Below the pieces are notes generated by a model that saw nothing but the letters and a program-made list of their open reading frames with translations, was not told the origin of the DNA and searched no databases. This document shows, one piece after another, positions 1,366-62,873 of a DNA stretch of 64,000 nt. The stretch's first letter is position 1. Every line of letters starts with the position of its first letter. Origin of the DNA: Candidatus Melainabacteria bacterium 17Bon1m (lineage in GTDB: Bacteria > Cyanobacteriota > Vampirovibrionia > Obscuribacterales > Obscuribacteraceae); contig JAVLKG010000017.1 in the NCBI GenBank assembly GCA_032128875.1, positions 1 to 64,000 of the forward strand, read 5' to 3'. Position numbers and translations under genes: made by a program.

Positions 1366-2712
1366 TTAAACTCCGTGCTTTTTTACAAGACGACTGAAAA
1401 ACTCTTGAATTTTTTTCTCTGATTCTTTGCCACACAGTTCATTCGCTCCGAACCTGTAGATTTCATAGCCGGCTAATTTCAAATCTCTATCTGCTTCAAC
1501 CATTTCTGCATACAGTTTCAATGAAGCAATTCCAGCATCAGAAAAATGTTGTGAGCCATCGACTTCTATGACCACTCTCACTGACGAACTGAAGAGAATT
1601 AGAAAGTCCATCCGCTGTCTTGCAAGCCGAGAAAAACCACCCAATTGTTTTATGGTATACGGATCATAATGAAGATAGACTTGCGGAACCAATGCAGGAA
1701 AATGATCACCTCTTGCTTTGAACATCTTGTAATAGCAATAGAACAAATTTCTTTCACCAATGGAAGCAAGTGACTTTGACAAGCGCTCAACCAGATTTTT
1801 TCGAGCTTCGTCAGTTTTTTCAATGCCTTTGAGATCTTTCCACCAATCGAGCATGTCTTGTTTCGACAAACCATTACTTCCGATGGGTCTGTCGTAAACT
1901 AAGCAGTTGTCAGCGTTTTTAACAATGCGAATATCATTATTGATTGCGTCTGAAAGTACAATTTCAGGCTTAGGACCATCCGCTGCGAAGATCAAATTCT
2001 TGGGGGCACCGGCTACACCTCCACCGACTGCAACAATTTTGAATATTGGATACCCTGATATAGAGCTTGTTTGAATGAAATGGTAACCATCGTTTTTCAG
2101 GTGCTGATTAATTGCATCAACCAAATTTTGCTGTTTCTCTTTTCTCCTAGAATTTGGATGAACAACTTTTTCAAGGAATTCGAAAAATAAAGTTCTTGAA
2201 CAGCCAATGATATCCAATTGGTCCAAAAGAAAGGTATTATCCCAGTCTCCAGGATTTCTAATGCAGTGTTGAATAATAGACTTTTTCAAAGAACCGCCTC
2301 TCGGATATGGAGAATTTAGTTCAGAAATTGGCCACATAGTCTCAAGATCTTCGTCTAATTTGGTGTAGTCTCCAAAAAGGTCAACATGTTCCAATTCATC
2401 GATAATCAACCTCCTAGACAGATCGGAGATATTCGGACCACTAACCGCATCTAGATGCTTTCTGGCCGACTCTCGAATGCCAAAATCTGGATAGCACTTT
2501 TCTATTTGAATTGTCATATTTAAGAAATCGAAATCGCTCAATTTATCAAGACGATTGCGTACATACATACGCTTGCTTGAATCTGCATCTGCAACATCGC
2601 CAGAATTTAAACCGAAACGGTCACACTCTGATGGTAAGTCTGCTTCTTCTATATGATCATCCAGCAGCTGTGCAATTTGTATACTTAATATGAGGCGATC
2701 TTTTTTGTCCAA
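1366..2712 (-). CDS. AbiJ-related protein (AbiJ N-terminal domain plus C-terminal DUF559/Vsr-like restriction-endonuclease fold)
   Basis: Motifs PKNLIFA..GPKPEIVLSDAINNDI, PQVYLHYDPYT and RQRMDFL..VVIEVDGSQH are typical of AbiJ-NTD3 plus REase proteins. Confidence 0.7.
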   Translation of the reverse strand: MDKKDRLILSIQIAQLLDDHIEEADLPSECDRFGLNSGDVADADSSKRMYVRNRLDKLSDFDFLNMTIQIEKCYPDFGIRESARKHLDAVSGPNISDLSRRLIIDELEHVDLFGDYTKLDEDLETMWPISELNSPYPRGGSLKKSIIQHCIRNPGDWDNTFLLDQLDIIGCSRTLFFEFLEKVVHPNSRRKEKQQNLVDAINQHLKNDGYHFIQTSSISGYPIFKIVAVGGGVAGAPKNLIFAADGPKPEIVLSDAINNDIRIVKNADNCLVYDRPIGSNGLSKQDMLDWWKDLKGIEKTDEARKNLVERLSKSLASIGERNLFYCYYKMFKARGDHFPALVPQVYLHYDPYTIKQLGGFSRLARQRMDFLILFSSSVRVVIEVDGSQHFSDAGIASLKLYAEMVEADRDLKLAGYEIYRFGANELCGKESEKKIQEFFSRLVKKHGV

Positions 2713-2799
2713 CTGAAAGCTCCTTCAGTTTTTCATTTATGCACAACATTTTGTTGTTGCTTACATCTGCAACTTCTGATGTCAAATTCGTGTCAGGAT

Positions 2800-4077
2800 C
2801 TAATCATCCTTTTGAGTGTGAATCAGCTGAAAACTATGCGAATTAAGCAGATACCATTCTCTTCCTTTTTTCTCGAGCCTTCCGGAAATTTGGATCAGCT
2901 TATCCGCATCCCATGCTTGAGAAGCTTCTGCTCGCTCCTTCGACGCAAGAAAAACTCCAATGTAAGTCAAACCTGGGACTGGAAGCTTGCCGTCCAAGAC
3001 TCGAAGGATTTTTATAGTTATGCGCTTCTCCAGATCTGATGCATCAAAGACACCATTAAAATCTCTGGCGCTGACGTTCTCTTTTTCACCTTCTCTATTC
3101 TCAAGTCTCGATGGCAACCCAATTATCGTAACTGTCTCCGGTGTGTGTTCAAAGACCTTCATCTGACTAGATGCCGAGCGTAGTCTGGTCGCCGCAGTAG
3201 GAGGCAGACTAATTAATTCAGAAAACGCTCTATCCTTAACCTCGATGATTGGCGACCAACTAAACCTATATTCGAATCTTGCATTCTGTTTTTCGTCAAC
3301 TTCAAGCATTGATGCGAGTGCGTCACACATATTTGCGCTTAAGCCTTCTTCAAAACCGGCTAGAATTGGTTCTACACTTTTGTTTGCCTCAGCTTCTTTG
3401 ACGAACTTTAAACCGCGCACCAGTCTTATTAGGGCTCGTCGTTCCATAGGAATTTTTTCTATTTTTGATTCTGCTTCTACCTTTGCAACCAATTCATTAT
3501 CATCATCACCATCTTCGTCTTCATCAATACTTGCTGAAGAATAAGCCACCGTAGATGGTGCAAAACTAGTCTTGATAGGAGCTTGCACCGTGAATCCATA
3601 GCTACCAATAAAGGTCTGACCGAACTGGCAAGTTTCAACCATTCGCTTGCCTGCACTCGAAAGACCGTTATGCACTGGTTGTGGAGATTTAAGCCCGGTA
3701 GCAGCATATCCAATCAGCTGTTTAAGATTTGGTACTATCTGCGCTGCGGAGTTTAGCGAAATTGTGTGGCGATTCCCAGGTGTTTCAATTCGGAGAGAAA
3801 GTACATCGTAAGATACCCCTGTTACGTAATCGAGTACAGTCGATAAATCCTCCTTTTGAACGGCACTAACCATTTCTAGAGCATCTGTAAGAAGGATTTG
3901 AAAATTTCTTGATTTTTTGTCTTTTGGAATTGTGATTTTAAGCGGCTGACCAGAATCATCGTCGAAACCTCCTAGAATTTGGACGTGTTGATCCTTATAT
4001 TCGTCACGCCAGCCGTTTCGCTCAAGATATGAAATCAAGTGCGCTATTTCTACTAGATTAATGCGATCATCAGCCAT
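2800..4077 (-). CDS. hypothetical protein, usual downstream partner of DUF4365 genes
   Basis: N-terminal 'SYLERNGW', 'FGQTFIGSY' and 'GLSANMCDAL' motifs; start overlaps the DUF4365 gene stop. Confidence 0.6.
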   Translation of the reverse strand: MADDRINLVEIAHLISYLERNGWRDEYKDQHVQILGGFDDDSGQPLKITIPKDKKSRNFQILLTDALEMVSAVQKEDLSTVLDYVTGVSYDVLSLRIETPGNRHTISLNSAAQIVPNLKQLIGYAATGLKSPQPVHNGLSSAGKRMVETCQFGQTFIGSYGFTVQAPIKTSFAPSTVAYSSASIDEDEDGDDDNELVAKVEAESKIEKIPMERRALIRLVRGLKFVKEAEANKSVEPILAGFEEGLSANMCDALASMLEVDEKQNARFEYRFSWSPIIEVKDRAFSELISLPPTAATRLRSASSQMKVFEHTPETVTIIGLPSRLENREGEKENVSARDFNGVFDASDLEKRITIKILRVLDGKLPVPGLTYIGVFLASKERAEASQAWDADKLIQISGRLEKKGREWYLLNSHSFQLIHTQKDD

Positions 4078-4759
4078 CTAGTTTTTTGTTCTCTTCCCGT
4101 AACCTCATTACTCTAAGTAGCTCCTCGGGAGTTAGGAGCTTATCCAGCGCAACCGTTTTGTTGTTTTCCACTTGTTTCAGTGAACCTGGAAGATATTTCC
4201 AGAAACAGCAATTTTTCAGTGTTAGAGCTTCTTGAGCGCTATTTACCCAGTTGTCGTCACCTTTTTCATGCAACCAACAAACAATCAGAATGCAAGGCAC
4301 GCCTGCACCTTGTTCCCCTTCCGCTTCGGCGTTGTAGTCGACAATTTTGTTATAAGCGTCAGGCGTCATCAGATAAGTAACATCGCCGTTTTTCTTTACT
4401 GACACCCGCCTTGAACTCGCTTTCAATTGAAACGCAAGAGGAAAGGCGCCGTTTCGCTGCTTGCCATTGATACTTTTGACGAGCTTGAAAAGCCCATCAT
4501 GGCCCTGATCCTGATTGTCCTTTGTGATAGTAATCCCGGCACGAGCAGCTATGGCCGTCACATGTGCGATACTTATCTGTTCTTTGATTGCATCTTCATT
4601 TAACCCGGTCCAAAGTGTCAAGCCAGGCTTCTTTTCTTTGGCTGCAGGCTGTGTTGTTTTTTTATCGCTGAAACTGGATGTTTCTTTGACTTTATTGTCG
4701 CTACTATCTTTCATCGATGAAGCCGTTTTGCTCAGTGGGCACGACTTCATATACCACAA
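4070..4759 (-). CDS. DUF4365 domain protein (PD-(D/E)xK-like)
   Basis: 'KEQISIAHVTAIAARAG', 'DQGHDG' and 'AFQLKAS' motifs match DUF4365. Confidence 0.7.
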   Translation of the reverse strand: MWYMKSCPLSKTASSMKDSSDNKVKETSSFSDKKTTQPAAKEKKPGLTLWTGLNEDAIKEQISIAHVTAIAARAGITITKDNQDQGHDGLFKLVKSINGKQRNGAFPLAFQLKASSRRVSVKKNGDVTYLMTPDAYNKIVDYNAEAEGEQGAGVPCILIVCWLHEKGDDNWVNSAQEALTLKNCCFWKYLPGSLKQVENNKTVALDKLLTPEELLRVMRLREENKKLDG

Positions 4760-4938
4760 TCTGAAAGGTCAAAACCGCTAATTGTTTTCCAAAGTAAGCT
4801 AATGTTCGCGCGGAAAGCAGATGCTAAGTAATTACTTTCACTTGGGTGCCTTTGGTGCGCGTAAAACATTCGAAAACCTTTTTTTGTGTATTTCCGCCCA
4901 GGTACAGCATTTTTCCTTAGATCTGCCGTGCTCGCGTA

Positions 4939-5487
4939 TTACTTTTGCTGCGGTTTCCGTGTTTTCTTTTTGGTTGCCTGTCCCATTTCATAATGTTCTT
5001 TAATGTCAGCGCTATCGATCAGTTGCTGTCCATCAACCGGTTTGGTTGCTCTCACTTTTGTTTTCTTTGGAGAATGCTTCAGTTCAGCTAGATCGATAGC
5101 CGAAGCTGCTTTCCATTCGGAGGCCCACTTGTTTGAGCGTTCTTTGGCTAGTCTTTTTAACTTACTTATTTCCTCCTCGCTGTTGTTAGGCAAATTTCTT
5201 CTCTGAATTTCAAGATCTACTGCAATGCTTTCAGCTGCCGCACGCCAACAAAGAAGCAAGGCACTGATTACTTCGTCTTGGAAAAGACCTATAGAGTCTA
5301 TGACTTGTTGGAATTGCGTACGGACAGTTTCTCGCTTCTGCTCTTCCAGCTGAGAAGTAATCGCTGCTCGAATGAAGCTGGTTCTGCTTTTGAACTTCTT
5401 TGATCTAAAGACTAAATGGTCAATTTCCTTCAACTGCCATTCGGTCAGTCGAATGTGAATGTCCTTGTACTTTTTGGGTTTCGACAT
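4939..5487 (-). CDS. ribbon-helix-helix DNA-binding protein, paralog of 62003..62512
   Basis: N-terminal 'DIHIRL..IDHL..SRTSFIRAAI' RHH pattern; shares 'CWRAAAESIAVD' with 62003..62512. Confidence 0.7.
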   Translation of the reverse strand: MSKPKKYKDIHIRLTEWQLKEIDHLVFRSKKFKSRTSFIRAAITSQLEEQKRETVRTQFQQVIDSIGLFQDEVISALLLCWRAAAESIAVDLEIQRRNLPNNSEEEISKLKRLAKERSNKWASEWKAASAIDLAELKHSPKKTKVRATKPVDGQQLIDSADIKEHYEMGQATKKKTRKPQQK

Positions 5488-5681
5488 AAGTGGATACGAT
5501 TAAACTGTCTAGAAAGTTTCTTTTACAGAGTTTGTGGATACGTTATATACCCTGATTTTCTTTGGCATAGACTTTTTGAGTATGCGACTACTATCAAACA
5601 ACGGCAGTAACGGCTGCCTTCGTAAGCACTTACATGGCGATTGAGAATAGGATTCTCGACGCTGACACCAAGGAGGTTGAA

Positions 5682-5750
5682 ATGCAAGAATTGATTGCGT
5701 TATTCGCACTGATAACTGTATGGACGGCTCTAATATTGCGAACTCACTGA
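5682..5750 (+). CDS. 22-aa hydrophobic peptide MQELIALFALITVWTALILRTH (type I toxin-like)
   Basis: AAGGAGG at 5670-5676, ATG at 5682, TGA at 5748-5750; homologous peptide at 62744..62815. Not in the ORF track. Confidence 0.75.
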   Translation: MQELIALFALITVWTALILRTH

Positions 5751-5764
5751 TCAACTGAACTTAA

Positions 5765-5788
5765 GGGCAGGCGCTCGAGAGCCTGCCC
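5765..5788. terminator. intrinsic terminator hairpin between convergent genes
   Basis: GGGCAGGC-N8-GCCTGCCC. Confidence 0.65.
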
Positions 5789-5809
5789 CATTTCTCTCAG
5801 CAAGCTATC

Positions 5810-6676
5810 TTATGATTTAAAGTCAAAAATCAAACGCAAAGCACGTTGATTTTCAAACAATGGGAAATTGGGTTCACGTCGAACGGCGTTCATCAATTCC
5901 CAATAACAATGTGAACCAATCCTAGTCGCACATTCCTTTGGTACATTGAACCCGTATTGTCTTACGCCCATATATGGCTCTTTCCAAAAGAAACTTCTTT
6001 CGAATTCTTCACGAATATAGCGATAAAGTCCCCAGCGAAGTTCGTTCAAGAGATTGACAATTGATTTCTCATTTTGATAGTAAACAATCAAAAACCACTC
6101 CAATAACTCTGGAAGTATCATGAATACTTCGTCTATGCCAATATCAATGTCGTTTTCCTTAAACACTTTGACTAAAGCTCTCGCATCTATTTCTAGCCTA
6201 GAAAAACTGTGTTTTACATGATTACCGCATAGCAAGAGAAGAGTTTTCGGATCTATTTTGATGGTGGCATGTCGATCGATAGTGGGTAACCACATATCAT
6301 TAAGGACGAATTTCTCACCAAAAAACTTGTCGATATTATCAATAGCCTTTTTCAACGGCTTAACTTCTGTAGAGAGTAAAGGTTTTTCCACCACCCTTGT
6401 GAGCAGTCGCATAAAGCTTTCTGTTTTGTCCTTTTCGGTCATGCCCGGTCTGAAAGCTTCGTATCGTGGCGCTGATAAAAAATCTGCGAATAGTACGTGA
6501 AATAAGCGTCTTTGCGCATCATTTTGGAACATCACAGTTCCTTCCTTGAAATAGTCCATTTCAAGTTTGTCGTAATTAACCAGGTCAAGAATCAATTCCC
6601 ATGCTGCAAGTAGCAGCATTACTTCCTTTTCCAGTTCTGAGTATTTTGTTTTGGAAACCGACTGCATTGAAATCAT
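5810..6676 (-). CDS. hypothetical protein
   Basis: 288 aa ORF starting 2 nt after the recombinase stop; no family recognised. Confidence 0.65.
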   Translation of the reverse strand: MISMQSVSKTKYSELEKEVMLLLAAWELILDLVNYDKLEMDYFKEGTVMFQNDAQRRLFHVLFADFLSAPRYEAFRPGMTEKDKTESFMRLLTRVVEKPLLSTEVKPLKKAIDNIDKFFGEKFVLNDMWLPTIDRHATIKIDPKTLLLLCGNHVKHSFSRLEIDARALVKVFKENDIDIGIDEVFMILPELLEWFLIVYYQNEKSIVNLLNELRWGLYRYIREEFERSFFWKEPYMGVRQYGFNVPKECATRIGSHCYWELMNAVRREPNFPLFENQRALRLIFDFKS

Positions 6677-6678
6677 TC

Positions 6679-7239
6679 CTAATATTTCAGCCTATGCACC
6701 GCATCGCGAGTGTCTTCCGGATCGACTGCAAGATACGCCTGCAGTTGTGAAAGTGAAGAGTGCCCAGACATCTCTTGCACCGTGCGTAGTGGCACACCCA
6801 TTCGACTAAGTGTTGTTAGAAAAGTCCTGCGCATTGAATGTGTTTTGGTTCCATCAAGTCGAAGTGCATCGTAAGCGCTTCGCAGAATGTAGTGCCCTTG
6901 CACGCGCTCGATATGGCCGCTTGCCGATCGGTCGGACGGGAAGAGCCAGGTCCCAAGTGTTGTCGACAATGCGTATTCTCGAATATACGATCTTAGTTTT
7001 GGGTGAATGGGAATGTCGCTGTAGACAGTCCCGCGCTTCTTCAGGCGTTTGACAGTCAGTTTGTTTCTGACTGTTCCGTTCTCGGTAATCACCTGGTCGG
7101 TTTCGAGGCGGACGATTTCGCCGATGCGTAACCCGGTGTATATGCCAATTGCAAAGAGAAGTTTGTTTCGAGGAGACGGAATGACTTGGAATATGTTTTG
7201 GATATCCTTGTCTTTCAAAATTGCAGCTTGACCGGGCAT
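6679..7239 (-). CDS. tyrosine recombinase (catalytic domain only, resolvase-like)
   Basis: TGLRIGE (R), THSMRRT (HxxR), GHSSL (H) and QAYL (Y). Likely start MPGQAAIL at 7239. Confidence 0.9.
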   Translation of the reverse strand: MPGQAAILKDKDIQNIFQVIPSPRNKLLFAIGIYTGLRIGEIVRLETDQVITENGTVRNKLTVKRLKKRGTVYSDIPIHPKLRSYIREYALSTTLGTWLFPSDRSASGHIERVQGHYILRSAYDALRLDGTKTHSMRRTFLTTLSRMGVPLRTVQEMSGHSSLSQLQAYLAVDPEDTRDAVHRLKY

Positions 7240-12048: not shown

Positions 12049-13821
12049 GTGCAGCGGCCCGCAAGATTTCAGCGCGCAGTAATCTTTCCAAAAGGTTGGG
12101 ATGACACTGTTTCTGACTTTCTCGAACTGTTTCACCATCACCGATACCAATATATATATCGTCCTCATGACTCGGACTCTTGGCTTTCAGCAAATGAAGA
12201 ATGGCGTCTTACAGACACTGAAATACTCAAGGCGGTAGCTGGAGTTCATCCAAAGTATCTGCTTGGTTTTCGCTTCGGCAAACAAACTCGATTTGCTGTC
12301 TTAGATATTGATGCGGAAAGTCCATATCACAACCTTCGCTCATTCAATAAGTTGAAGAGAGTCCTGCGTGATGCCGGTATCACGCAAGTTGTGCCTTTTC
12401 GTTCGAGCACAAGCAGTGGATGGCATTTGTATATATTTTTCGACGAGCTCGTCAACTCCCTGCATTTAAAGCGAGCGCTGGTCAACCTTCTGACTTATAC
12501 GGGATTTCGTATAAAATCAGGCGAGCTGGAGATTTTTCCTAATGTTTCACATGCATCAGCCGGCATGGGTCTGCGTCTTCCGCTTCAAGCCGGCTTCGCT
12601 TTTCTCAATGACAGGAATTTGGAGCCTGATATAGAGAGATGGGAACTCAGTCCAACCAAAGCTCTTGATTATTTTCTGGACGCGGCTAATAGTTGCTCAA
12701 ATACGCGGACTCAGTTCGAAGAACTTCAAAAGCATGCAACTCTATGTGCAGAAAAACTGGACAAAGTTACGGCACTGAGAGCACAGCCGAGAACACCTGG
12801 CAATGTAATTGCAATGCCGGATCGCAAAGTCAAAATCGCCGGACAACATAGAGATGATGTTGCCGCGATTTTTTCGGTTATGCCTCCTGGCATACGTGCC
12901 GACGACTGGTTTCGTGGACGCACTTATCACGCAAGTGGTCTAAGCGGACCTTCTCAACGAGCCGATGCGATTCACTGCCTGTCTCACTATTTCTTCTACG
13001 GAGATCCAAGTTGTGCGCTGCCGGCACTTGGCTATGGATACGAGACAGAAAGAGAACTGGCCATAAAACAGATTCTCGAGTTGCGCCACAACGGCTTCAG
13101 CAAAGACCTGAATAAGGGCGAAGCCGATGCAGTATCTCAAATTGAACGCGCCGCCAATTGGATTCCACCACAAAGGCGCCAAGATGAACCCAAAAAATAT
13201 GCACCGATACAGCCGATTTCCTGGGTCCGAGAAAATGCAAACCGCAAAGTTGATGCTCGCAAACGCATTCAAAGCGCACTAGAAAAACTCAAGAGCGCCA
13301 GTGTGAAGTTCACAACAGTCGACCTGCAAAAGTCTGCCCAATGCTCTCGGGAGACTCTCTATAAGCATGAAGATATCTGGCGTCAAGCTTATGAAGATCT
13401 TGCCGACAACTTCTTTGCAATCTGTACGGACGAATATAACGGTGTGGAGGGGGGTGGTTCCTCAGAAACCGCACCCCTGCCTCCTTCTGACAAAAAAGAT
13501 GTTCCGCCTGGTCTTTTGGCTGCTAGACGCATTGTTTTTGAATTGAAAATGCGTGACCAGAAAGAGAAGCGAAAACGGGATCGTGTTATCGGGGATATGC
13601 TTTCAATACGCGATGAAAAGTGGCTTGCTGAATTAATCAGACTGGAACGAGTTGACGTCACTTTGTGCTCGGTCCCTGATCTGAAATTAGCCATAGTTCT
13701 TCTTCGATCGCTTCTTGCTACTGCCTCCGATGAGCATGTACAGGAAAGAGTTGTAAGACTGCAAACTCTATTCACTCGGCAACTTCGCATGGTCGAGCGA
13801 CATTTCTTTGACGAGAGTTGA
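12049..13821 (+). CDS. AEP (archaeo-eukaryotic primase) family replication protein, cyanobacterial-plasmid type
   Basis: AEP motifs 'GFRFG..RFAVLDID..SPYH', 'RSSTSSGWHLY' and 'ELEIFPN..LRLPLQ'; C-terminal HTH-like 'SAQCSRETLYKH'. Confidence 0.8.
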   Translation: MQRPARFQRAVIFPKGWDDTVSDFLELFHHHRYQYIYRPHDSDSWLSANEEWRLTDTEILKAVAGVHPKYLLGFRFGKQTRFAVLDIDAESPYHNLRSFNKLKRVLRDAGITQVVPFRSSTSSGWHLYIFFDELVNSLHLKRALVNLLTYTGFRIKSGELEIFPNVSHASAGMGLRLPLQAGFAFLNDRNLEPDIERWELSPTKALDYFLDAANSCSNTRTQFEELQKHATLCAEKLDKVTALRAQPRTPGNVIAMPDRKVKIAGQHRDDVAAIFSVMPPGIRADDWFRGRTYHASGLSGPSQRADAIHCLSHYFFYGDPSCALPALGYGYETERELAIKQILELRHNGFSKDLNKGEADAVSQIERAANWIPPQRRQDEPKKYAPIQPISWVRENANRKVDARKRIQSALEKLKSASVKFTTVDLQKSAQCSRETLYKHEDIWRQAYEDLADNFFAICTDEYNGVEGGGSSETAPLPPSDKKDVPPGLLAARRIVFELKMRDQKEKRKRDRVIGDMLSIRDEKWLAELIRLERVDVTLCSVPDLKLAIVLLRSLLATASDEHVQERVVRLQTLFTRQLRMVERHFFDES

Positions 13822-47296: not shown

Positions 47297-48013
47297 ATGA
47301 CATCGACACTAACATCTGACAAAGTAGAATCTTTTCTTGAAGTAGTACGAGAGCAAGAATCTCCAATACGAATTTATCCAGAGCAAACAGCTTTCATAAG
47401 CAAGAAGCTTCAGTTCGACTGGAAAGAGGTCATACAAGGTCACTTTGATGGAGATGAAGGACACAAAAATTTTGTAGTTGATGATTGTGGAAGCAAAGAA
47501 AGCTCTTTTGTTTTTTTCGGATCTCAAAAATGGAAACTTGCAAAAATACACTTCCACAGACGTTCTGAGCATCTTCTTGAAAGCAAGCATTCAAAAGACG
47601 GTTCGTTTGATGCCGAGATTCACTTCATCCATGCACCGGTAAAAGAACACGTAGAGACTGGCGACAAGATGATTGAGCCTTCTGAGAATTTGGTGCTTGG
47701 CACTTTCGTTGTTGAAAGTTCGATAGGTGCTAAATCTGACGAGCTGATGTCATTCTTTTCTGCTTGTGAATCCGGCGAGAAGACCGTGCGATTGCCTCTG
47801 GAAATAATCAAACAAGTGACCAAGCTAGAGCAGTTTTACTTCTACAGAGGCTCGCTTACAACAAAGCCATATTCCGAGAACATCTCCTGGGTGGTATTTG
47901 AAAGCCCATTGCAGCTTGATAAAACTGTTCTGGACCCAATCTGCCCGACCACTCAAGAAGCACGCAAAGGTCAGCCTTGGAATCGCCGTTTTGTGCTAAG
48001 AAATTTTGAGTAG
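47297..48013 (+). CDS. alpha-class carbonic anhydrase
   Basis: 'IHFH..SEH', 'EIHFIH' and 'YRGSLTT.P..E..W'; no signal peptide. Confidence 0.85.
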   Translation: MTSTLTSDKVESFLEVVREQESPIRIYPEQTAFISKKLQFDWKEVIQGHFDGDEGHKNFVVDDCGSKESSFVFFGSQKWKLAKIHFHRRSEHLLESKHSKDGSFDAEIHFIHAPVKEHVETGDKMIEPSENLVLGTFVVESSIGAKSDELMSFFSACESGEKTVRLPLEIIKQVTKLEQFYFYRGSLTTKPYSENISWVVFESPLQLDKTVLDPICPTTQEARKGQPWNRRFVLRNFE

Positions 48014-51373: not shown

Positions 51374-51726
51374 TGCAATTTCCAATCGAGCAAATTGACG
51401 AACTTCGTTCTATATATCCTGACGTGAAACAGATGGAAGAAGGTGGCACACCCTATTTCTTGCTACCTAATGTTTCCCTTCCTGGGGGAGCAACTCCTGC
51501 CACTGTTGACCTGCTTCTTCGTCCTGTACACATGGATGGCTACGATTCTCGGCTTTTCTACTCGCAACAGCCAACCTTTGCCAACCGAACTCATCAGGAA
51601 GCGCTTAATTGGAACGCCCAAGGTGTTCATATGCTCTCGAGAAACTGGTACGCCTTCTCGTGGAGAACAAAACCTGGCCTGACTTTGGCGCAAATGGTTG
51701 CTATGCATTTGAGGGCAGTACGATGA
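51373..51726 (+). CDS. prokaryotic E2-like protein (Cys-less)
   Basis: 'LLPNVSLP..VDLLL.P..GY..RLF..NW..WYAFSW..HL'; TAATG overlap with the Ubl gene. Confidence 0.75.
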   Translation: MQFPIEQIDELRSIYPDVKQMEEGGTPYFLLPNVSLPGGATPATVDLLLRPVHMDGYDSRLFYSQQPTFANRTHQEALNWNAQGVHMLSRNWYAFSWRTKPGLTLAQMVAMHLRAVR

Positions 51727-53027
51727 AAACTCAAGTCAGAATTGCACGCCAACTCTACAACAGAATAATGGCTGACATGGGTAGACCGCATTCGTTTGCC
51801 TATGAGCGAATTGGCTTCTGTCGCGCCAGAATAGGTAATGAGAAGAGCTCCAATCCGATCATATTTCTTGCGGAATATTGGTCTGTTCCAGACGATCAGT
51901 ACATCGCTGATGAGTACGCTGGCGCACGTATAAACAGCGAGGCAATCCGAAACGCGCTTCAGTCCTCGCTAAGCGATGATGTCGGAATCTTTCATATACA
52001 CATGCACGATTTTCCCGGAATACCCTCATTTAGTCCGATGGATAGGCGAGAAATTCCGCGAATCGTTCAAAGTTTGACTTTCACAAATCCTGGCGTGCCG
52101 CATGGAATGCTGGTCTTTGGACGAGATAAGGCATATGCTGAAGTGTGCATGCCTAACGATATCCTTCGACCAGTCGACCGCATAACTGTCGTTGGACATC
52201 CAACACAGGTGCTCAGTGCGCTGCCTAAATTCGCTAACAGTGACCGCTTTAGTCGACAGACTTTTCTCGGTCATGATGCTCCTGAGCGAATTGATTCGTT
52301 GAAAATTGGCATCGTCGGACTCAGTGGTGGCGGTTCTCATATCGCACAGCAGGCTAGCCATACAGGTTTTGCTAACTTTGCACTCTTTGACGCCCAAGCA
52401 ATAGACTGTTCAAATCTGAATCGTCTTGTTGGTGGAACCGAAGATGATGTTCTCAAAGGTCGTCTCAAAATTTCTATTGCCGATAGAGTGATAACAAGCA
52501 TTAATGGCTTAGCTAACACGGAGCCTGTCCCCGCCCGTTGGCAAGACTTTCCGGAATCTCTGCGAAGCTGCGATATCGTTTTCGGCTGCCTTGATGGTTT
52601 CGATGAGCGCCGACAACTGGAAGCTGCCTGCCGTAGATATCTCATTCCGCTTATTGACGTAGGAATGGACGTTACTGAAATGACGGGAAAGCCACCTCGA
52701 ATGGCTGGACAAGTCATTTTGTCCCTGCCCGGTTATCCTTGCTTTCATTGCATTGGATTTTTGAATGAGAGAAACCTTGCAGCGGAAGCGGCAAGATATG
52801 GAGATGCCGGCATCAATCCACAGGTGGTTTGGCCAAATGGAGTCTTAGCTTCTACGGCAGTTGGAATCGCAGTCGACCTAGTCACTGATTGGAGAAAGTC
52901 CAAACCTGGTCTGATTTATAAGAGCTACGATGGCAACAGCGACAATCTTACTGACCATCCACGTTTTGAATACGTCAGTGACCGCGGCTGCCCGCACTAC
53001 CCGCTGGACGCTTTGGGAGATCCATAG
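51723..53027 (+). CDS. JAB peptidase-ThiF/E1 fusion
   Basis: 'ERIGF', 'HIHMH..FSPMD' (JAB); 'IVGLSGGGS', 'SNLNRL', 'GCLD' and 'PCFHC' (ThiF). ATGA overlap with the E2 gene. Confidence 0.88.
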   Translation: MKTQVRIARQLYNRIMADMGRPHSFAYERIGFCRARIGNEKSSNPIIFLAEYWSVPDDQYIADEYAGARINSEAIRNALQSSLSDDVGIFHIHMHDFPGIPSFSPMDRREIPRIVQSLTFTNPGVPHGMLVFGRDKAYAEVCMPNDILRPVDRITVVGHPTQVLSALPKFANSDRFSRQTFLGHDAPERIDSLKIGIVGLSGGGSHIAQQASHTGFANFALFDAQAIDCSNLNRLVGGTEDDVLKGRLKISIADRVITSINGLANTEPVPARWQDFPESLRSCDIVFGCLDGFDERRQLEAACRRYLIPLIDVGMDVTEMTGKPPRMAGQVILSLPGYPCFHCIGFLNERNLAAEAARYGDAGINPQVVWPNGVLASTAVGIAVDLVTDWRKSKPGLIYKSYDGNSDNLTDHPRFEYVSDRGCPHYPLDALGDP

Positions 53028-53177
53028 ACTTCAGAACTGATTCTTATGGAAACCAGCATTTGGCTTTTGGCGACTACCAGCTGGTTTTAATGTTCTATGG
53101 CCGTTTATGAGAGTTCTATATCCATCAATTTGATTTGAGTTTTGATACCTGTTCTTGGCGGGAATACAAATTCAATC

Positions 53178-54593
53178 ATGCAACGCTCATTGTCAGTTCA
53201 CATCGTCAAACAAGGTTTGCAGTCTGGGCTCACCAAATTCTTTGGTCGAGCCACGCGAGCTGCGCTTATCTACTCGTCTGATGTTGCGGAAGCAAATGAT
53301 TTCTCAGTTTACGACACGACCGGGCTTTTGGAAAAATATAAACCAGATATCAGTGCTTATTTCCAGAGCGCTGACGCTGTTCCCCGGCAAACTAAGATTG
53401 ACAAAATTTCCGAGACTGTTCGGACAAGACCCCGACTCTCCAATGACCTTTATTGTTTGATCGAGCAGTCAAACGATGTCTTTTTTCACATGTGGTTTGT
53501 CGAGCGACACCAGAGTGAAAGCCCAGGCAGCTTGCTTGATCAATGGATTCTTTTTGCACAGCTTCCATTGCTTAGGCCGGATGGCGAGATGAACATTGGA
53601 ACGCAAATTGGTGGAGGCCGACTTGCTGAACATGCCGCATTCGATGTTGTTAGAGAAGTAATAATGGAGCAGATGTTCCCGCGCACTTTGGCAGGTGGTC
53701 AGGCCGATGCTGAGATCGTTCTTGAATCGCTTATGGAAATTGCGACCGTCAAAGAAGAAGGATCCGGTTGCTCAGGCACTTTGGCAATCTTTGACCGAAA
53801 TCCGACCGGTCAACCAAAAGTGGACTATCCTCTGAAGACGCCGGTAGCCATCGACAAATTCAAACATGTTAGAAAGTTTTTGACCGCTACCAGTGATGAC
53901 TATCAGCTGGTGGCTATTGCTGGAAACATTGTCGGTTTCTCTCACAGAAAATCCATTAAAAGTCCGCTTTTGGCTTCTTTCGATCGTGGAAAGCTCACAC
54001 TAACCCTGAACAAAGTTCCACTTTGTCAAATTAGTAATGGGACCTTTAGAGCTATCGAAAGCAAATGGACTTTGGACATAAACAACCAAACAAAATCCTT
54101 GTCTAGGCTTGATGCCGCGACGAAACTGCGTGTTCAAGAGTTCGTCAATAAGTTAGTTACAACTGCTCGCAATGAGCATTTTGGATGTACTCTCCTTCTG
54201 GACTCAGGTGAACCTTGTAAGCGCAGGTTGAGCGGACAGAAACTAGAAACTCCTGTTGCATTGAATGAAGACACTTTCAATCTCTTCTCAGATATGTGTA
54301 AAGTTGATGGAGCTGTCCACATCGACGTTAATAAGCTTCACTTGTGCGCTTTTGCCTGTCTTTTGGACGGTGAATCTGGTGATACCGAAGAACTTTCTCG
54401 TGGAGCTCGCTTCAACTCTGCGCAGAGATACAGTCGCAAAACTGAAAATATGGTCGTCCTTGTTGTTTCAGAAGACGGACCGGTCACTATTTTTGAAGGC
54501 GGCGAGACGGCTGCTGTAATTGAAAAGTATGTGAGAGATCACGAATGCAAACATTCTCCACCGAAACTGAGTGAGTGGTTGAACTCGAAGTAA
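53178..54593 (+). CDS. diadenylate cyclase (DisA_N/DAC) domain protein with N-terminal sensor-like domains
   Basis: 'VDGAVHID', 'FACLLDG', 'RGARFNSAQRY' and 'VVSEDG'. Confidence 0.82.
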   Translation: MQRSLSVHIVKQGLQSGLTKFFGRATRAALIYSSDVAEANDFSVYDTTGLLEKYKPDISAYFQSADAVPRQTKIDKISETVRTRPRLSNDLYCLIEQSNDVFFHMWFVERHQSESPGSLLDQWILFAQLPLLRPDGEMNIGTQIGGGRLAEHAAFDVVREVIMEQMFPRTLAGGQADAEIVLESLMEIATVKEEGSGCSGTLAIFDRNPTGQPKVDYPLKTPVAIDKFKHVRKFLTATSDDYQLVAIAGNIVGFSHRKSIKSPLLASFDRGKLTLTLNKVPLCQISNGTFRAIESKWTLDINNQTKSLSRLDAATKLRVQEFVNKLVTTARNEHFGCTLLLDSGEPCKRRLSGQKLETPVALNEDTFNLFSDMCKVDGAVHIDVNKLHLCAFACLLDGESGDTEELSRGARFNSAQRYSRKTENMVVLVVSEDGPVTIFEGGETAAVIEKYVRDHECKHSPPKLSEWLNSK

Positions 54594-62002: not shown

Positions 62003-62512
62003 TCAAGGGGACTTCTTCACTTTCTTAGCCTTTGGCTTTCCTTTAGGTTTTGCGGAAGGAACGTCCACTCCGTCGAAAAACATCTGTTTAGTCTTTGCCG
62101 GATCACGTTTTAGCTTTGCCAGATCAACTGCTAGACCATCGTTTACATGCTTCGACCATTCTTCTGATTCTTTCTTGGCGCGAGCACGGATGCCTTCCAA
62201 AACCTCCGGCGGGACTTGGTCAGCCGAAGTCAATCGATATACTTCCATATCAACGGCAATACTTTCCGCTGCGGCTCTCCAGCAAAGTACGAGCATCCTG
62301 CAAAGCTCTTCTTCAAACGTTCTTACGTAATTCAATACTTGTCCGTAATACGGACTTGCCAACTCATCTGCCTTGTTTTCGATTTGCCTGTCAATCGCCG
62401 CTCTGATGAAATCAGTTCGCGTCTGGTCCCTTTTGAGCATGCGATCGATATGCGCCAGGCGCGACTTTTCAACTCGAATGTGGATGTCCGTGTAGATTTT
62501 TTTTCTTGGCAT
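62003..62512 (-). CDS. ribbon-helix-helix protein, paralog of 4939..5487
   Basis: 'DIHIRV..TRTDFIRAAI' and 'CWRAAAESIAVD'. Confidence 0.7.
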   Translation of the reverse strand: MPRKKIYTDIHIRVEKSRLAHIDRMLKRDQTRTDFIRAAIDRQIENKADELASPYYGQVLNYVRTFEEELCRMLVLCWRAAAESIAVDMEVYRLTSADQVPPEVLEGIRARAKKESEEWSKHVNDGLAVDLAKLKRDPAKTKQMFFDGVDVPSAKPKGKPKAKKVKKSP

Positions 62513-62743
62513 AAGCGTGGATACGATAAAAGGTAAACAGAGAAAGAGAAATTACTATCTGTGGATTAGTTATGCCCGCATGTTTCAATGTTCTCACCCT
62601 GCATTAGAATGAGAGTGTGGGTTGGGAATGAGGCACGGACGCAGATTTCCGCTGACCCATAAAGGTAGTTAAACAGTTGGTAGAACAGCTCCTCTCGCCA
62701 GGAGTTTGTTTTCATGCGCCTTTGGGTGCAAAGGAGGTTTGTT

Positions 62744-62815
62744 TTGTTGGAGTTTGCTGCGCTATTGGCGGTTTTCACCGTCTGGACGGCTCTTGTTTTA
62801 AAAACACAGCAGTAA
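62744..62815 (+). CDS. 23-aa hydrophobic peptide MLEFAALLAVFTVWTALVLKTQQ (type I toxin-like)
   Basis: AAGGAGG at 62731-62737, TTG at 62744, TAA at 62813-62815; homolog of 5682..5750. Confidence 0.72.
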   Translation: MLEFAALLAVFTVWTALVLKTQQ

Positions 62816-62835
62816 AGGAGGTTTGCTGTATCTAT

Positions 62836-62873
62836 ACGCCGGCGCTGATTCAGTTCAGCGCCGGCGTTTTTTT
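62836..62873 (+). terminator. strong intrinsic terminator
   Basis: ACGCCGGCGCTGA-N6-TCAGCGCCGGCGT followed by a T-tract. Confidence 0.85.

Follow-up and report, generated by a model that had tools for sequence, protein, structure and literature searches.

A rare, duplicated cassette of a ribbon-helix-helix regulator gene and a putative membrane mini-peptide gene in an uncultured Melainabacteria bacterium

Introduction

Is a reading frame of 22 or 23 codons that faces a regulator gene a gene in its own right, and what might its product do? This question is raised by a stretch of 64,000 nucleotides (the window), which comprises bases 1-64000 of contig C17 (78,889 bp, 45.7% G+C) in the genome of Candidatus Melainabacteria bacterium 17Bon1m (7.55 Mb, 35 contigs). 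The host is an uncultured non-photosynthetic cyanobacterium with a large genome, represented by a metagenome-assembled genome. Twice in the window, a gene for a ribbon-helix-helix (RHH) protein lies divergent from a mini open reading frame (mini-ORF) for a short hydrophobic peptide. An earlier reading of the same letters by a model (the original prediction) took this module for a new plasmid addiction or regulatory cassette. Genes this short escape every gene caller, and few of them have a dedicated regulator together with a clear putative operator, which makes such a pair easy to test. We confirm here that the cassette is real, rare, unannotated, duplicated and under selection, and that it forms an autonomous two-gene unit; the interpretation given in the original prediction is borne out in part. 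It is a novel pair of a small protein and a regulator, narrowly distributed and carried by an uncultured host, and it is very probably both regulated and translated.

Anatomy of the cassette

The mini-ORFs, their AAGGAGG sites, the terminators, the divergent paralogous RHH genes and the boxes 44 bp apart all lie where the original prediction had placed them. The genes of the two copies and their immediate signals are as follows.

4939-5487, minus strand: RHH regulator gene of copy 1, 182 aa, with an N-terminal RHH, a predicted long helical hairpin containing CWRAAAES and a disordered basic tail
5670-5676, plus strand: perfect Shine-Dalgarno (SD) sequence AAGGAGG of copy 1, 5 nt upstream of the ATG
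5682-5750, plus strand: mini-ORF of copy 1, ATG start, 22 aa, MQELIALFALITVWTALILRTH, with one hydrophobic span between E3 and R20
5765-5788, plus strand: terminator-like hairpin of copy 1, 8 pairs, weak T tail
62003-62512, minus strand: RHH regulator gene of copy 2, 169 aa, matching YlcI/YnfO_N at an expectation value (E) of 8e-5, below the cut-off
62731-62737, plus strand: SD sequence AAGGAGG of copy 2, 6 nt upstream of the TTG
62744-62815, plus strand: mini-ORF of copy 2, TTG start, 23 aa, MLEFAALLAVFTVWTALVLKTQQ
62836-62867, plus strand: intrinsic terminator of copy 2, a 13-pair stem followed by T7, with 1 compensatory pair in the consensus fold

The starts of the RHH and peptide genes are 194 and 231 bp apart in copies 1 and 2, respectively, on opposite strands. 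The TTG at position 62744, which is retained together with its SD sequence at the related loci L004 and L006, is the conserved start of copy 2, because the second TTG has become TTA in L004 and TTC in L006 and an ATG further upstream (62714) does not share the reading frame in L006. The two peptides are 59% identical, with M1, E3, A6, L7, A9, T-V-W-T-A-L and L19 invariant in the peptide alignment. Their best 15-residue Kyte-Doolittle windows score 2.59 (copy 1) and 2.37 (copy 2), and each has an acidic N-terminus and a basic C-terminus. The product would be a single-span membrane peptide. At 22 and 23 aa, both have the size of the small hydrophobic peptides (fewer than about 60 aa) that act as type I toxins.

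The unit spans about 0.85 kb and consists of the RHH gene, the peptide gene and the spacer between them, because the flanking genes differ between lineages: downstream of the RHH gene lie the PDC-M02A/B pair in copy 1, an unknown pair of 497 and 103 aa in copy 2 and a tetratricopeptide repeat (TPR) gene in L004; in L006 the downstream gene is on the opposite strand. The genes convergent on the peptide gene were considered as a third component and rejected, being unrelated between the two copies.

Neither the peptide nor the RHH subfamily belongs to any Pfam, NCBIfam, Rfam, PADLOC or PHROGs family at threshold, and the family that the original prediction did not recognise is indeed absent from these libraries. 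Pfam returned no family for two of the peptides and only PetN, at E 0.094 and below its cut-off, for a third; NCBIfam returned none, so that no toxin model of either library places the peptide in a described type I family. Rfam gave no match at the gathering score, nor at E <=1 apart from a chance row for Esr41. The cassette is duplicated, self-contained and unannotated everywhere, and its peptide is not found among 5.8 billion predicted proteins. No paper on the cassette was found by literature searches, which were not aimed at its sequence motifs, and the family libraries are the stronger evidence of novelty.

A third similar mini-ORF, MMELIVVLFIITLAVLAVKG, was observed on another plasmid-like contig of the same genome (C27:9675-9737, minus strand; L063:1376-1438). 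This ORF has a perfect AAGGAGG and a GC hairpin behind it, and its product has M-x-E-L-I and a basic C-terminus in common with the copy 1 peptide. The ORF has no divergent RHH gene, lies about 290 nt downstream of a 556-aa gene that we guess to be replication-related, and is absent from all of the other 106 genomes searched in the order.

Evidence for translation and selection

The 7.55 Mb genome was scanned for mini-ORFs 17-45 codons long that have a perfect AAGGAGG at a distance of 3-16 nt upstream and whose product scores at least 2.2 in a hydrophobicity window of 15 residues. Four ORFs qualified, and two of them are those of the cassette. The genome rarely uses a perfect SD sequence, since the perfect 7-mer lies near a candidate start in just 29 of 3360 long ORFs. 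When the two copies are aligned, the ORF alone aligns better than shuffled sequence: none of 300 shuffles reached the observed score for the peptide ORF, compared with 6 of 300 for the stretch between the boxes, 19 of 300 downstream of the ORF and 55 of 300 in the leader, taken from box 2 to the SD sequence.

The differences within the ORF are those expected of a coding sequence. Counted at codon positions 1:2:3, they are 8:3:14 between copies 1 and 2 and 3:1:7 between copy 2 and L006, summing to 11:4:21 (chi-square p 0.0023, a value that is somewhat generous because the two comparisons share a branch). The ratio of nonsynonymous to synonymous substitution (dN/dS, Nei-Gojobori method, NG86) is 0.20 both for copy 1 versus L006 and for copy 2 versus L006, with dS saturated between the window copies. 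Of the 12 residues identical between the copies, 8 are encoded by different codons, which bears out the earlier claim of a conserved peptide core with differing codons, and all replacements preserve the residue class (hydrophobic for hydrophobic, R/K or H/Q). In the frame on the opposite strand, the variable sites would land on the second codon position. Translation of the ORF is therefore highly likely, judged from this pattern of substitution and the start signals.

Four RNA-library runs, all in the form of assembled contigs, were compared with positions 4000-7000 of the window. Two of them cover the whole interval; these may include DNA, or the present sequence may derive from them. The other two, lake metatranscriptomes, have read-length pieces at 4840-5028, 5235-5438, 5720-5870 and 5897-6047, which give no strand, ends or levels.

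Distribution

The original prediction had called for a search for conserved divergent synteny. In profile searches of 107 genomes of the order, strong RHH matches (E <1e-60) occurred in 5 genomes, all of one genus, and strong peptide matches (E <=1e-12) occurred in the same 5, adjoining the RHH gene at 7 of 7 loci. The pair was also kept at all 5 loci recovered from public contigs. Scans of public genome contigs and metagenome contigs yielded the three known variants alone; viral contigs contained no match to the cassette, and PLSDB none by blastn or tblastn. Among 1.84 billion proteins, the RHH profile reached only 7 clusters (at 50% identity) at E <=0.001, so the family is very rare. Beyond the known variants these are P0003-P0006 at E <=1e-8 and P0007 (68 aa) at E 2e-4, and every cluster is named 'hypothetical protein' or not named at all. 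A word-based protein search returned one near-identical protein and nothing else, and no sequence from outside the family attained E 1e-8 when 401 sampled genomes of the class were searched.

Weaker RHH matches in the order (25 loci in 24 genomes) are other plasmid RHH proteins, several of them beside relaxase genes, and a mini-ORF with an SD sequence and a hydrophobic span was found at none of the 25 loci. Weak peptide matches in short frames at L054 and L055 were dismissed as chance. The nearest outgroup with readable DNA is a 145-aa RHH-hairpin protein in two genomes (G063 and G064; loci L018, L019 and L068; E ~1e-10), in which ATRASAQA replaces CWRAAAES and no mini-ORF is present. The expectation in the original prediction that RHH homologues elsewhere would come with the peptide ORF therefore holds in the three close lineages with readable DNA, all of which retain the peptide, and fails for these distant relatives.

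In G063 and G064, the RHH gene lies in an operon as the last of a conserved three-gene set, after an excisionase-like 78-aa gene and an unknown one of 102-113 aa. Many other weak RHH-profile matches (L020, L033, L034, L036; L064:4256-6064) are RHH genes directly upstream of relaxase-like genes, a label checked against Pfam for C17 alone and judged elsewhere by similar N-terminal sequence. RHH-plus-helix proteins of 130-160 aa appear to be a common type of plasmid protein in this lineage.

The plasmid-type setting assumed at the outset was recovered on C17. The contig encodes a NikA-like RHH protein, a MobA/VirD2-type relaxase and a TraG/VirD4-type coupling protein, in addition to a tyrosine integrase, and by its gene content it is a mobilisable plasmid or integrative element. 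Overlap between the contig ends was looked for and none was found; circularity is thus unsupported.

The RHH regulator

The two RHH proteins are 37% identical (E 4e-34) and have the stretch LCWRAAAESIAVD in common. Both stay below the curated cut-offs of Pfam (copy 1: RHH_8 at E 0.002, RHH_1 at E 0.025); across the subfamily, RHH_8 was matched by 4 of 7 members and RHH_1 by 3 of 7, with a best E of 8.3e-6. Solely RHH models matched the subfamily, with no match to helix-turn-helix (HTH) or TPR models. The N-terminal RHH that characterizes type II RHH antitoxins is present, and its reading strand D-I-H-(I/V/L)-R is retained across the subfamily, in step with the conserved box. A sequence search of the PDB returned sub-threshold RHH chains alone (yiiF, 0.009; a CopG-family regulator, 0.024).

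In an AlphaFold model (mean predicted local distance difference test score, pLDDT, 68.8; 80-87 over residues 11-90), the copy 1 protein has a helix at residues 16-28, a very long helix at 35-98 that continues the second RHH helix, a helix at 104-138 that folds back, and a disordered lysine-rich tail. Foldseek ranked RHH domains first (CopA_SO, PutA, NikR, Arc and CopG), with a TM-score by target of at most 0.85 and E >1, and found nothing at E <=0.001. The additional domain of about 100 residues has invariant W, R, E and S and matches no known family: a wide structural search with the hairpin returned generic helical hairpins alone (Z <=8.8), and a protein Atlas search gave no usable match. 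A complex prediction of two RHH chains (residues 1-142) with two peptides scored 0.00, the peptide being shorter than those in the calibration set of the tool.

Boxes, candidate promoters and leader RNA

The spacers contain paired boxes and candidate promoter elements at the following positions.

5490-5500, plus strand: box 1 of copy 1, GTGGATACGAT, 2 nt from the RHH start codon, candidate operator over the RHH transcription start
5534-5544, plus strand: box 2 of copy 1, GTGGATACGTT, 44 bp from box 1
62517-62527, plus strand: box 1 of copy 2, GTGGATACGAT, 4 nt from the RHH start codon
62561-62571, plus strand: box 2 of copy 2, GTGGATTAGTT, 44 bp from box 1
5568-5573, plus strand: TAGACT, putative -10 element of the peptide promoter of copy 1, aligned with TAGAAT of copy 2 and not called by the promoter scan
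62605-62610, plus strand: TAGAAT, putative -10 element of the peptide promoter of copy 2, part of CTGCATTAGAAT, a sequence shared without change by copy 2, L004 and L006

The exact sequence GTGGATAC occurs three times in the window (5490, 5534 and 62517), always within the two spacers, and the box at 62561 reads GTGGATTA. At 69809 the contig has a fourth exact occurrence, within the relaxase gene; this one was set aside as chance. The spacing of 44 bp is kept in 4 of 4 variants (both copies, L004 and L006). Genome-wide, three direct pairs of GTGGAT are exactly 44 bp apart, against about 0.5 expected, and two of these are the cassette pairs; GTGGATAC itself shows no excess, with 115 occurrences against the ~230 expected for uniform composition. 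Control by the RHH protein, as originally predicted, stands in one respect: the conserved paired boxes sit where an RHH autorepressor would act, and they are candidate operators.

On the RHH strand, box 1 is preceded by TTTAAT or TTTTAT, and there is no SD sequence before the RHH ATG. The RHH mRNA is probably leaderless, or nearly so, because box 1 lies only 2-4 nt from the start codon and the SD sequence is missing. For a relative with 39% identity, an N-terminally extended gene call ends in P-V-S-T-M, which GTATCCAC would encode if it stood directly before the ATG; this hints that the putative operator is older than the lineages with readable DNA. On the peptide side, box 2 is separated from the conserved TAGAMT by 34 bp in copy 1 and by 44 bp in copy 2.

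Three hairpins are predicted in the transcript of copy 2.

62687-62706, plus strand: hairpin in the 5' untranslated region, in which CUCCU pairs with AGGAG; the pairing is kept through one-sided changes in L004 and L006
62718-62738, plus strand: SD hairpin, in which the SD core GGAGG (62733-62737) pairs with GCCUUU (62718-62723) in the consensus fold of 3 sequences
62806-62829, plus strand: stop-codon hairpin with 1 compensatory pair, its loop containing the SD-like UAAAGGAGGU; conservation is confined to the copy 2 lineage

Covariation support for this fold is thin, coming from three sequences. In the stop-codon hairpin, 19 nt are nearly invariant in three lineages, with no conserved start codon downstream.

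Discussion

We propose, with a probability of roughly 0.4, that the peptide is a growth-inhibiting membrane effector resembling type I toxins, which the RHH protein holds in check. The RHH protein would oligomerise through its long helical hairpin and bind the two direct GTGGAT(A/T)NG boxes, and two dimers joined through the hairpin domain could bridge boxes about four helical turns apart. RHH repressors with an added oligomerisation domain include Mnt of phage P22, omega of pSM19035 and CopG, and Mnt is a precedent for dimers joined to bridge two boxes. The cassette regulator is like these proteins in its RHH reading head, in the repeated short boxes and in a helical extension that may be able to join two dimers four turns apart, and the CopG and Arc structures are among the Foldseek rows for its model; in contrast to them, it shows no sequence relation past the RHH, and its CWRAAAES hairpin resembles nothing more specific than a generic helical hairpin. 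With box 1 over the start of the RHH mRNA, bound RHH protein would block its own promoter, and with box 2 just upstream of the putative -10 element, where it would cover the upstream half of the promoter, the same protein would also repress the peptide gene. The peptide mRNA would consist of a structured leader of about 100-125 nt, a perfect SD sequence that is partly buried in the copy 2 lineage, the ORF of 22-23 codons and the terminator. Transcriptional repression and mRNA structure together would keep the peptide silent, and the cassette would stabilise the mobile element or ride along with it.

The toxin-like traits of the peptide gene are its small size, its hydrophobic span, the buried SD sequence, the tight terminator, the duplication and the autonomy of the unit; those of its setting are the patchy and narrow distribution, the mobilisable element and the candidate defence genes nearby (PDC-M02A/B and an AbiJ domain). 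Type I toxin-antitoxin loci with short membrane toxins include those of TisB, Ibs, ShoB and ZorO (PMC2887945, Fozo et al. 2010; for ZorO-OrzO, PMC3919570). Like these, the cassette encodes a peptide in the range of about 20-30 residues that has a single hydrophobic span, and it has a terminator right behind the ORF, a long structured leader with a ribosome site that is buried (here in the copy 2 lineage), duplicated loci, plasmid carriage and a narrow distribution. The divergent layout also resembles that of tisB/istR and zorO/orzO, and tisB is additionally under a protein repressor, LexA. Unlike in type I loci, the divergent partner is a protein-coding RHH gene rather than a small RNA, with no antisense RNA found, and the peptide has no sequence match to any toxin model. 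With the type II modules that have CopG/ParD/MazE-like RHH antitoxins (Foldseek rows 6iya, 6xrw, 4me7 and 7zg6), the cassette shares the N-terminal RHH, the likely autorepression at repeated boxes and the form of a small autonomous mobile unit of two genes. It differs from them in that its genes are divergent and form no operon, that the partner is a membrane peptide of 22-23 residues without a family instead of a soluble enzyme or a folded toxin of a known superfamily, and that the RHH protein has a helical hairpin of 100 residues, unlike known antitoxin tails.

Several points weigh against a repressed toxin. The peptide matched no known toxin family in Pfam or NCBIfam, and neither signs of an antisense RNA nor an Rfam match were found. 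A repressor alone gives no post-segregational killing unless the peptide mRNA outlives the repressor. Judged by eye, the promoters match weakly, and the promoter scan did not call them; burial of the SD sequence is seen in the copy 2 lineage alone, the centroid fold of copy 1 leaving it unpaired. With one mismatch allowed, the box 8-mer shows no enrichment in the window (28 occurrences against 24.5 expected), and because it is enriched neither there nor genome-wide, there is no sign of a wider regulon. The loci represent three sequence lineages (the copy 1, copy 2 and L006/L010 types) of one genus-level clade, and the co-occurrence of the two genes is in part shared descent for this reason. 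The RNA-library contigs weigh neither for nor against a transcript.

The same regulated cassette might instead encode a harmless small membrane protein that modulates a larger machine, such as a transporter, a kinase or the transfer apparatus, at a level set by the RHH protein. Many short single-span proteins are modulators rather than toxins, the anatomy and the evidence for selection fit this explanation equally well, and a specific helix-helix contact is suggested by the polar and aromatic core T-V-W-T-A-L, which is invariant. However, no conserved membrane-protein partner adjoins the cassette, the flanks being different in each lineage, and an autonomous, duplicated and patchy two-gene unit is more typical of selfish modules; we regard a modulator as unlikely, if still worth serious attention.

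A further explanation, which we consider quite improbable, is that the peptide is the ligand of its own regulator and is bound by the RHH helical hairpin (CWRAAAES, W121), either as a type-I-like toxin neutralised by a protein antitoxin or as a feedback or cell-cell signal that is sensed as in Rgg/SHP or PrgX/PrgQ. The prgQ gene, which faces prgX, encodes the short precursor of iCF10. According to PMC5552905, the prgQ operon is repressed by PrgX, which binds the peptides cCF10 and iCF10, and PMC13361665 describes the peptide genes of group I and II Rgg/SHP systems as transcribed divergently from the regulator gene. As in these systems of the Firmicutes, a peptide gene of about 22 codons is divergent from its regulator gene, and as with PrgX/PrgQ of pCF10 the pair sits on a transferable plasmid or element. 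The strict co-inheritance of the RHH-peptide pair, the extra RHH domain with its invariant residues and the glutamate conserved at peptide position 3 would also fit a ligand. Against it, the regulator is an RHH protein with a helical hairpin and has neither the HTH nor the TPR of an RRNPP-type regulator; the peptide is acidic at its N-terminus and basic at its C-terminus and lacks a signal-like leader; the phylum is another one; and no linked genes for export, processing or import were seen. The host lineage, moreover, is presumably diderm. The narrower proposal that the RHH protein is a receptor for its own peptide through the conserved hairpin, and thus a peptide-gated RHH regulator, is slightly less probable again. 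If true, it would be the first RHH regulator gated by a genetically coupled mini-peptide, and would constitute either a new type of toxin-antitoxin system, in which a protein sequesters a type-I-like membrane toxin, or a leaderless peptide signal on a mobilisable element, similar to Rgg/SHP and built from unrelated parts.

There is also little probability that the RHH protein chiefly regulates variable same-strand cargo downstream (PDC-M02A/B after copy 1 and the 497-aa and 103-aa pair after copy 2), with the peptide as a side product of a bidirectional control region. Both RHH genes are indeed followed by same-strand cargo after gaps of 179 and 120 bp, and no minus-strand terminator was reported in the scanned parts of these gaps. 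Nevertheless, the next gene is on the opposite strand in L006 and is a TPR gene in L004, the peptide is the sole partner retained in all lineages, and selection on its sequence would be left unexplained. Least probable of all is that the ORF is untranslated and incidental to a conserved small RNA or DNA site: an 11-nt run, TGGACGGCTCT, is identical in all variants and the transcript is predicted to be structured, but the position-3 bias (11:4:21, p 0.0023), the dN/dS of about 0.2, replacements that all keep hydrophobicity or charge class, a perfect SD sequence and start at fixed spacing in every variant of a genome that seldom uses perfect SD sequences, and the lack of an Rfam match argue otherwise.

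Taken with the preferred reading of a repressed toxin, the cassette resembles type I toxins on the peptide side, type II RHH modules on the regulator side and Rgg/SHP in its layout. It belongs to none of these, and fails a defining feature of each of the type I, type II and RRNPP systems, because no RNA antitoxin was found for it, its peptide belongs to no toxin family, its two genes form no operon and its regulator is not of the HTH-TPR type; we class it as a repressor-controlled small membrane peptide cassette. If the peptide is toxic, a type-I-style membrane toxin would be paired with a type-II-style RHH repressor, a combination undescribed in the libraries searched. If it talks to its regulator, peptide-gated transcription would be extended to the RHH fold and to the Melainabacteria, with a first handle on the plasmid biology of this uncultured lineage.

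Other genes of the element

Directly downstream of the copy 1 RHH gene and on the same strand, positions 1366-4759 (minus strand) of the window comprise the genes for PDC-M02A (DUF4365) and PDC-M02B, a candidate defence pair, and behind them a gene whose product has an AbiJ N-terminal domain 3. The ensemble resembles a small defence island. At 51609-54593 (plus strand), a ThiF-family gene precedes one for a protein that combines a diadenylate-cyclase (DAC) domain with the sensor domains DACND and DACNH; the two genes may form a nucleotide-signalling conflict system on the same element as the cassette. A 590-aa protein encoded at 12049-13821 (plus strand) has a TOTE-type archaeo-eukaryotic primase domain (E 5.7e-7) and is a candidate replication or conflict gene product. 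The mobile element also encodes a carbonic anhydrase of the eukaryotic (alpha) type at 47297-48013 (plus strand; E 3.8e-21).

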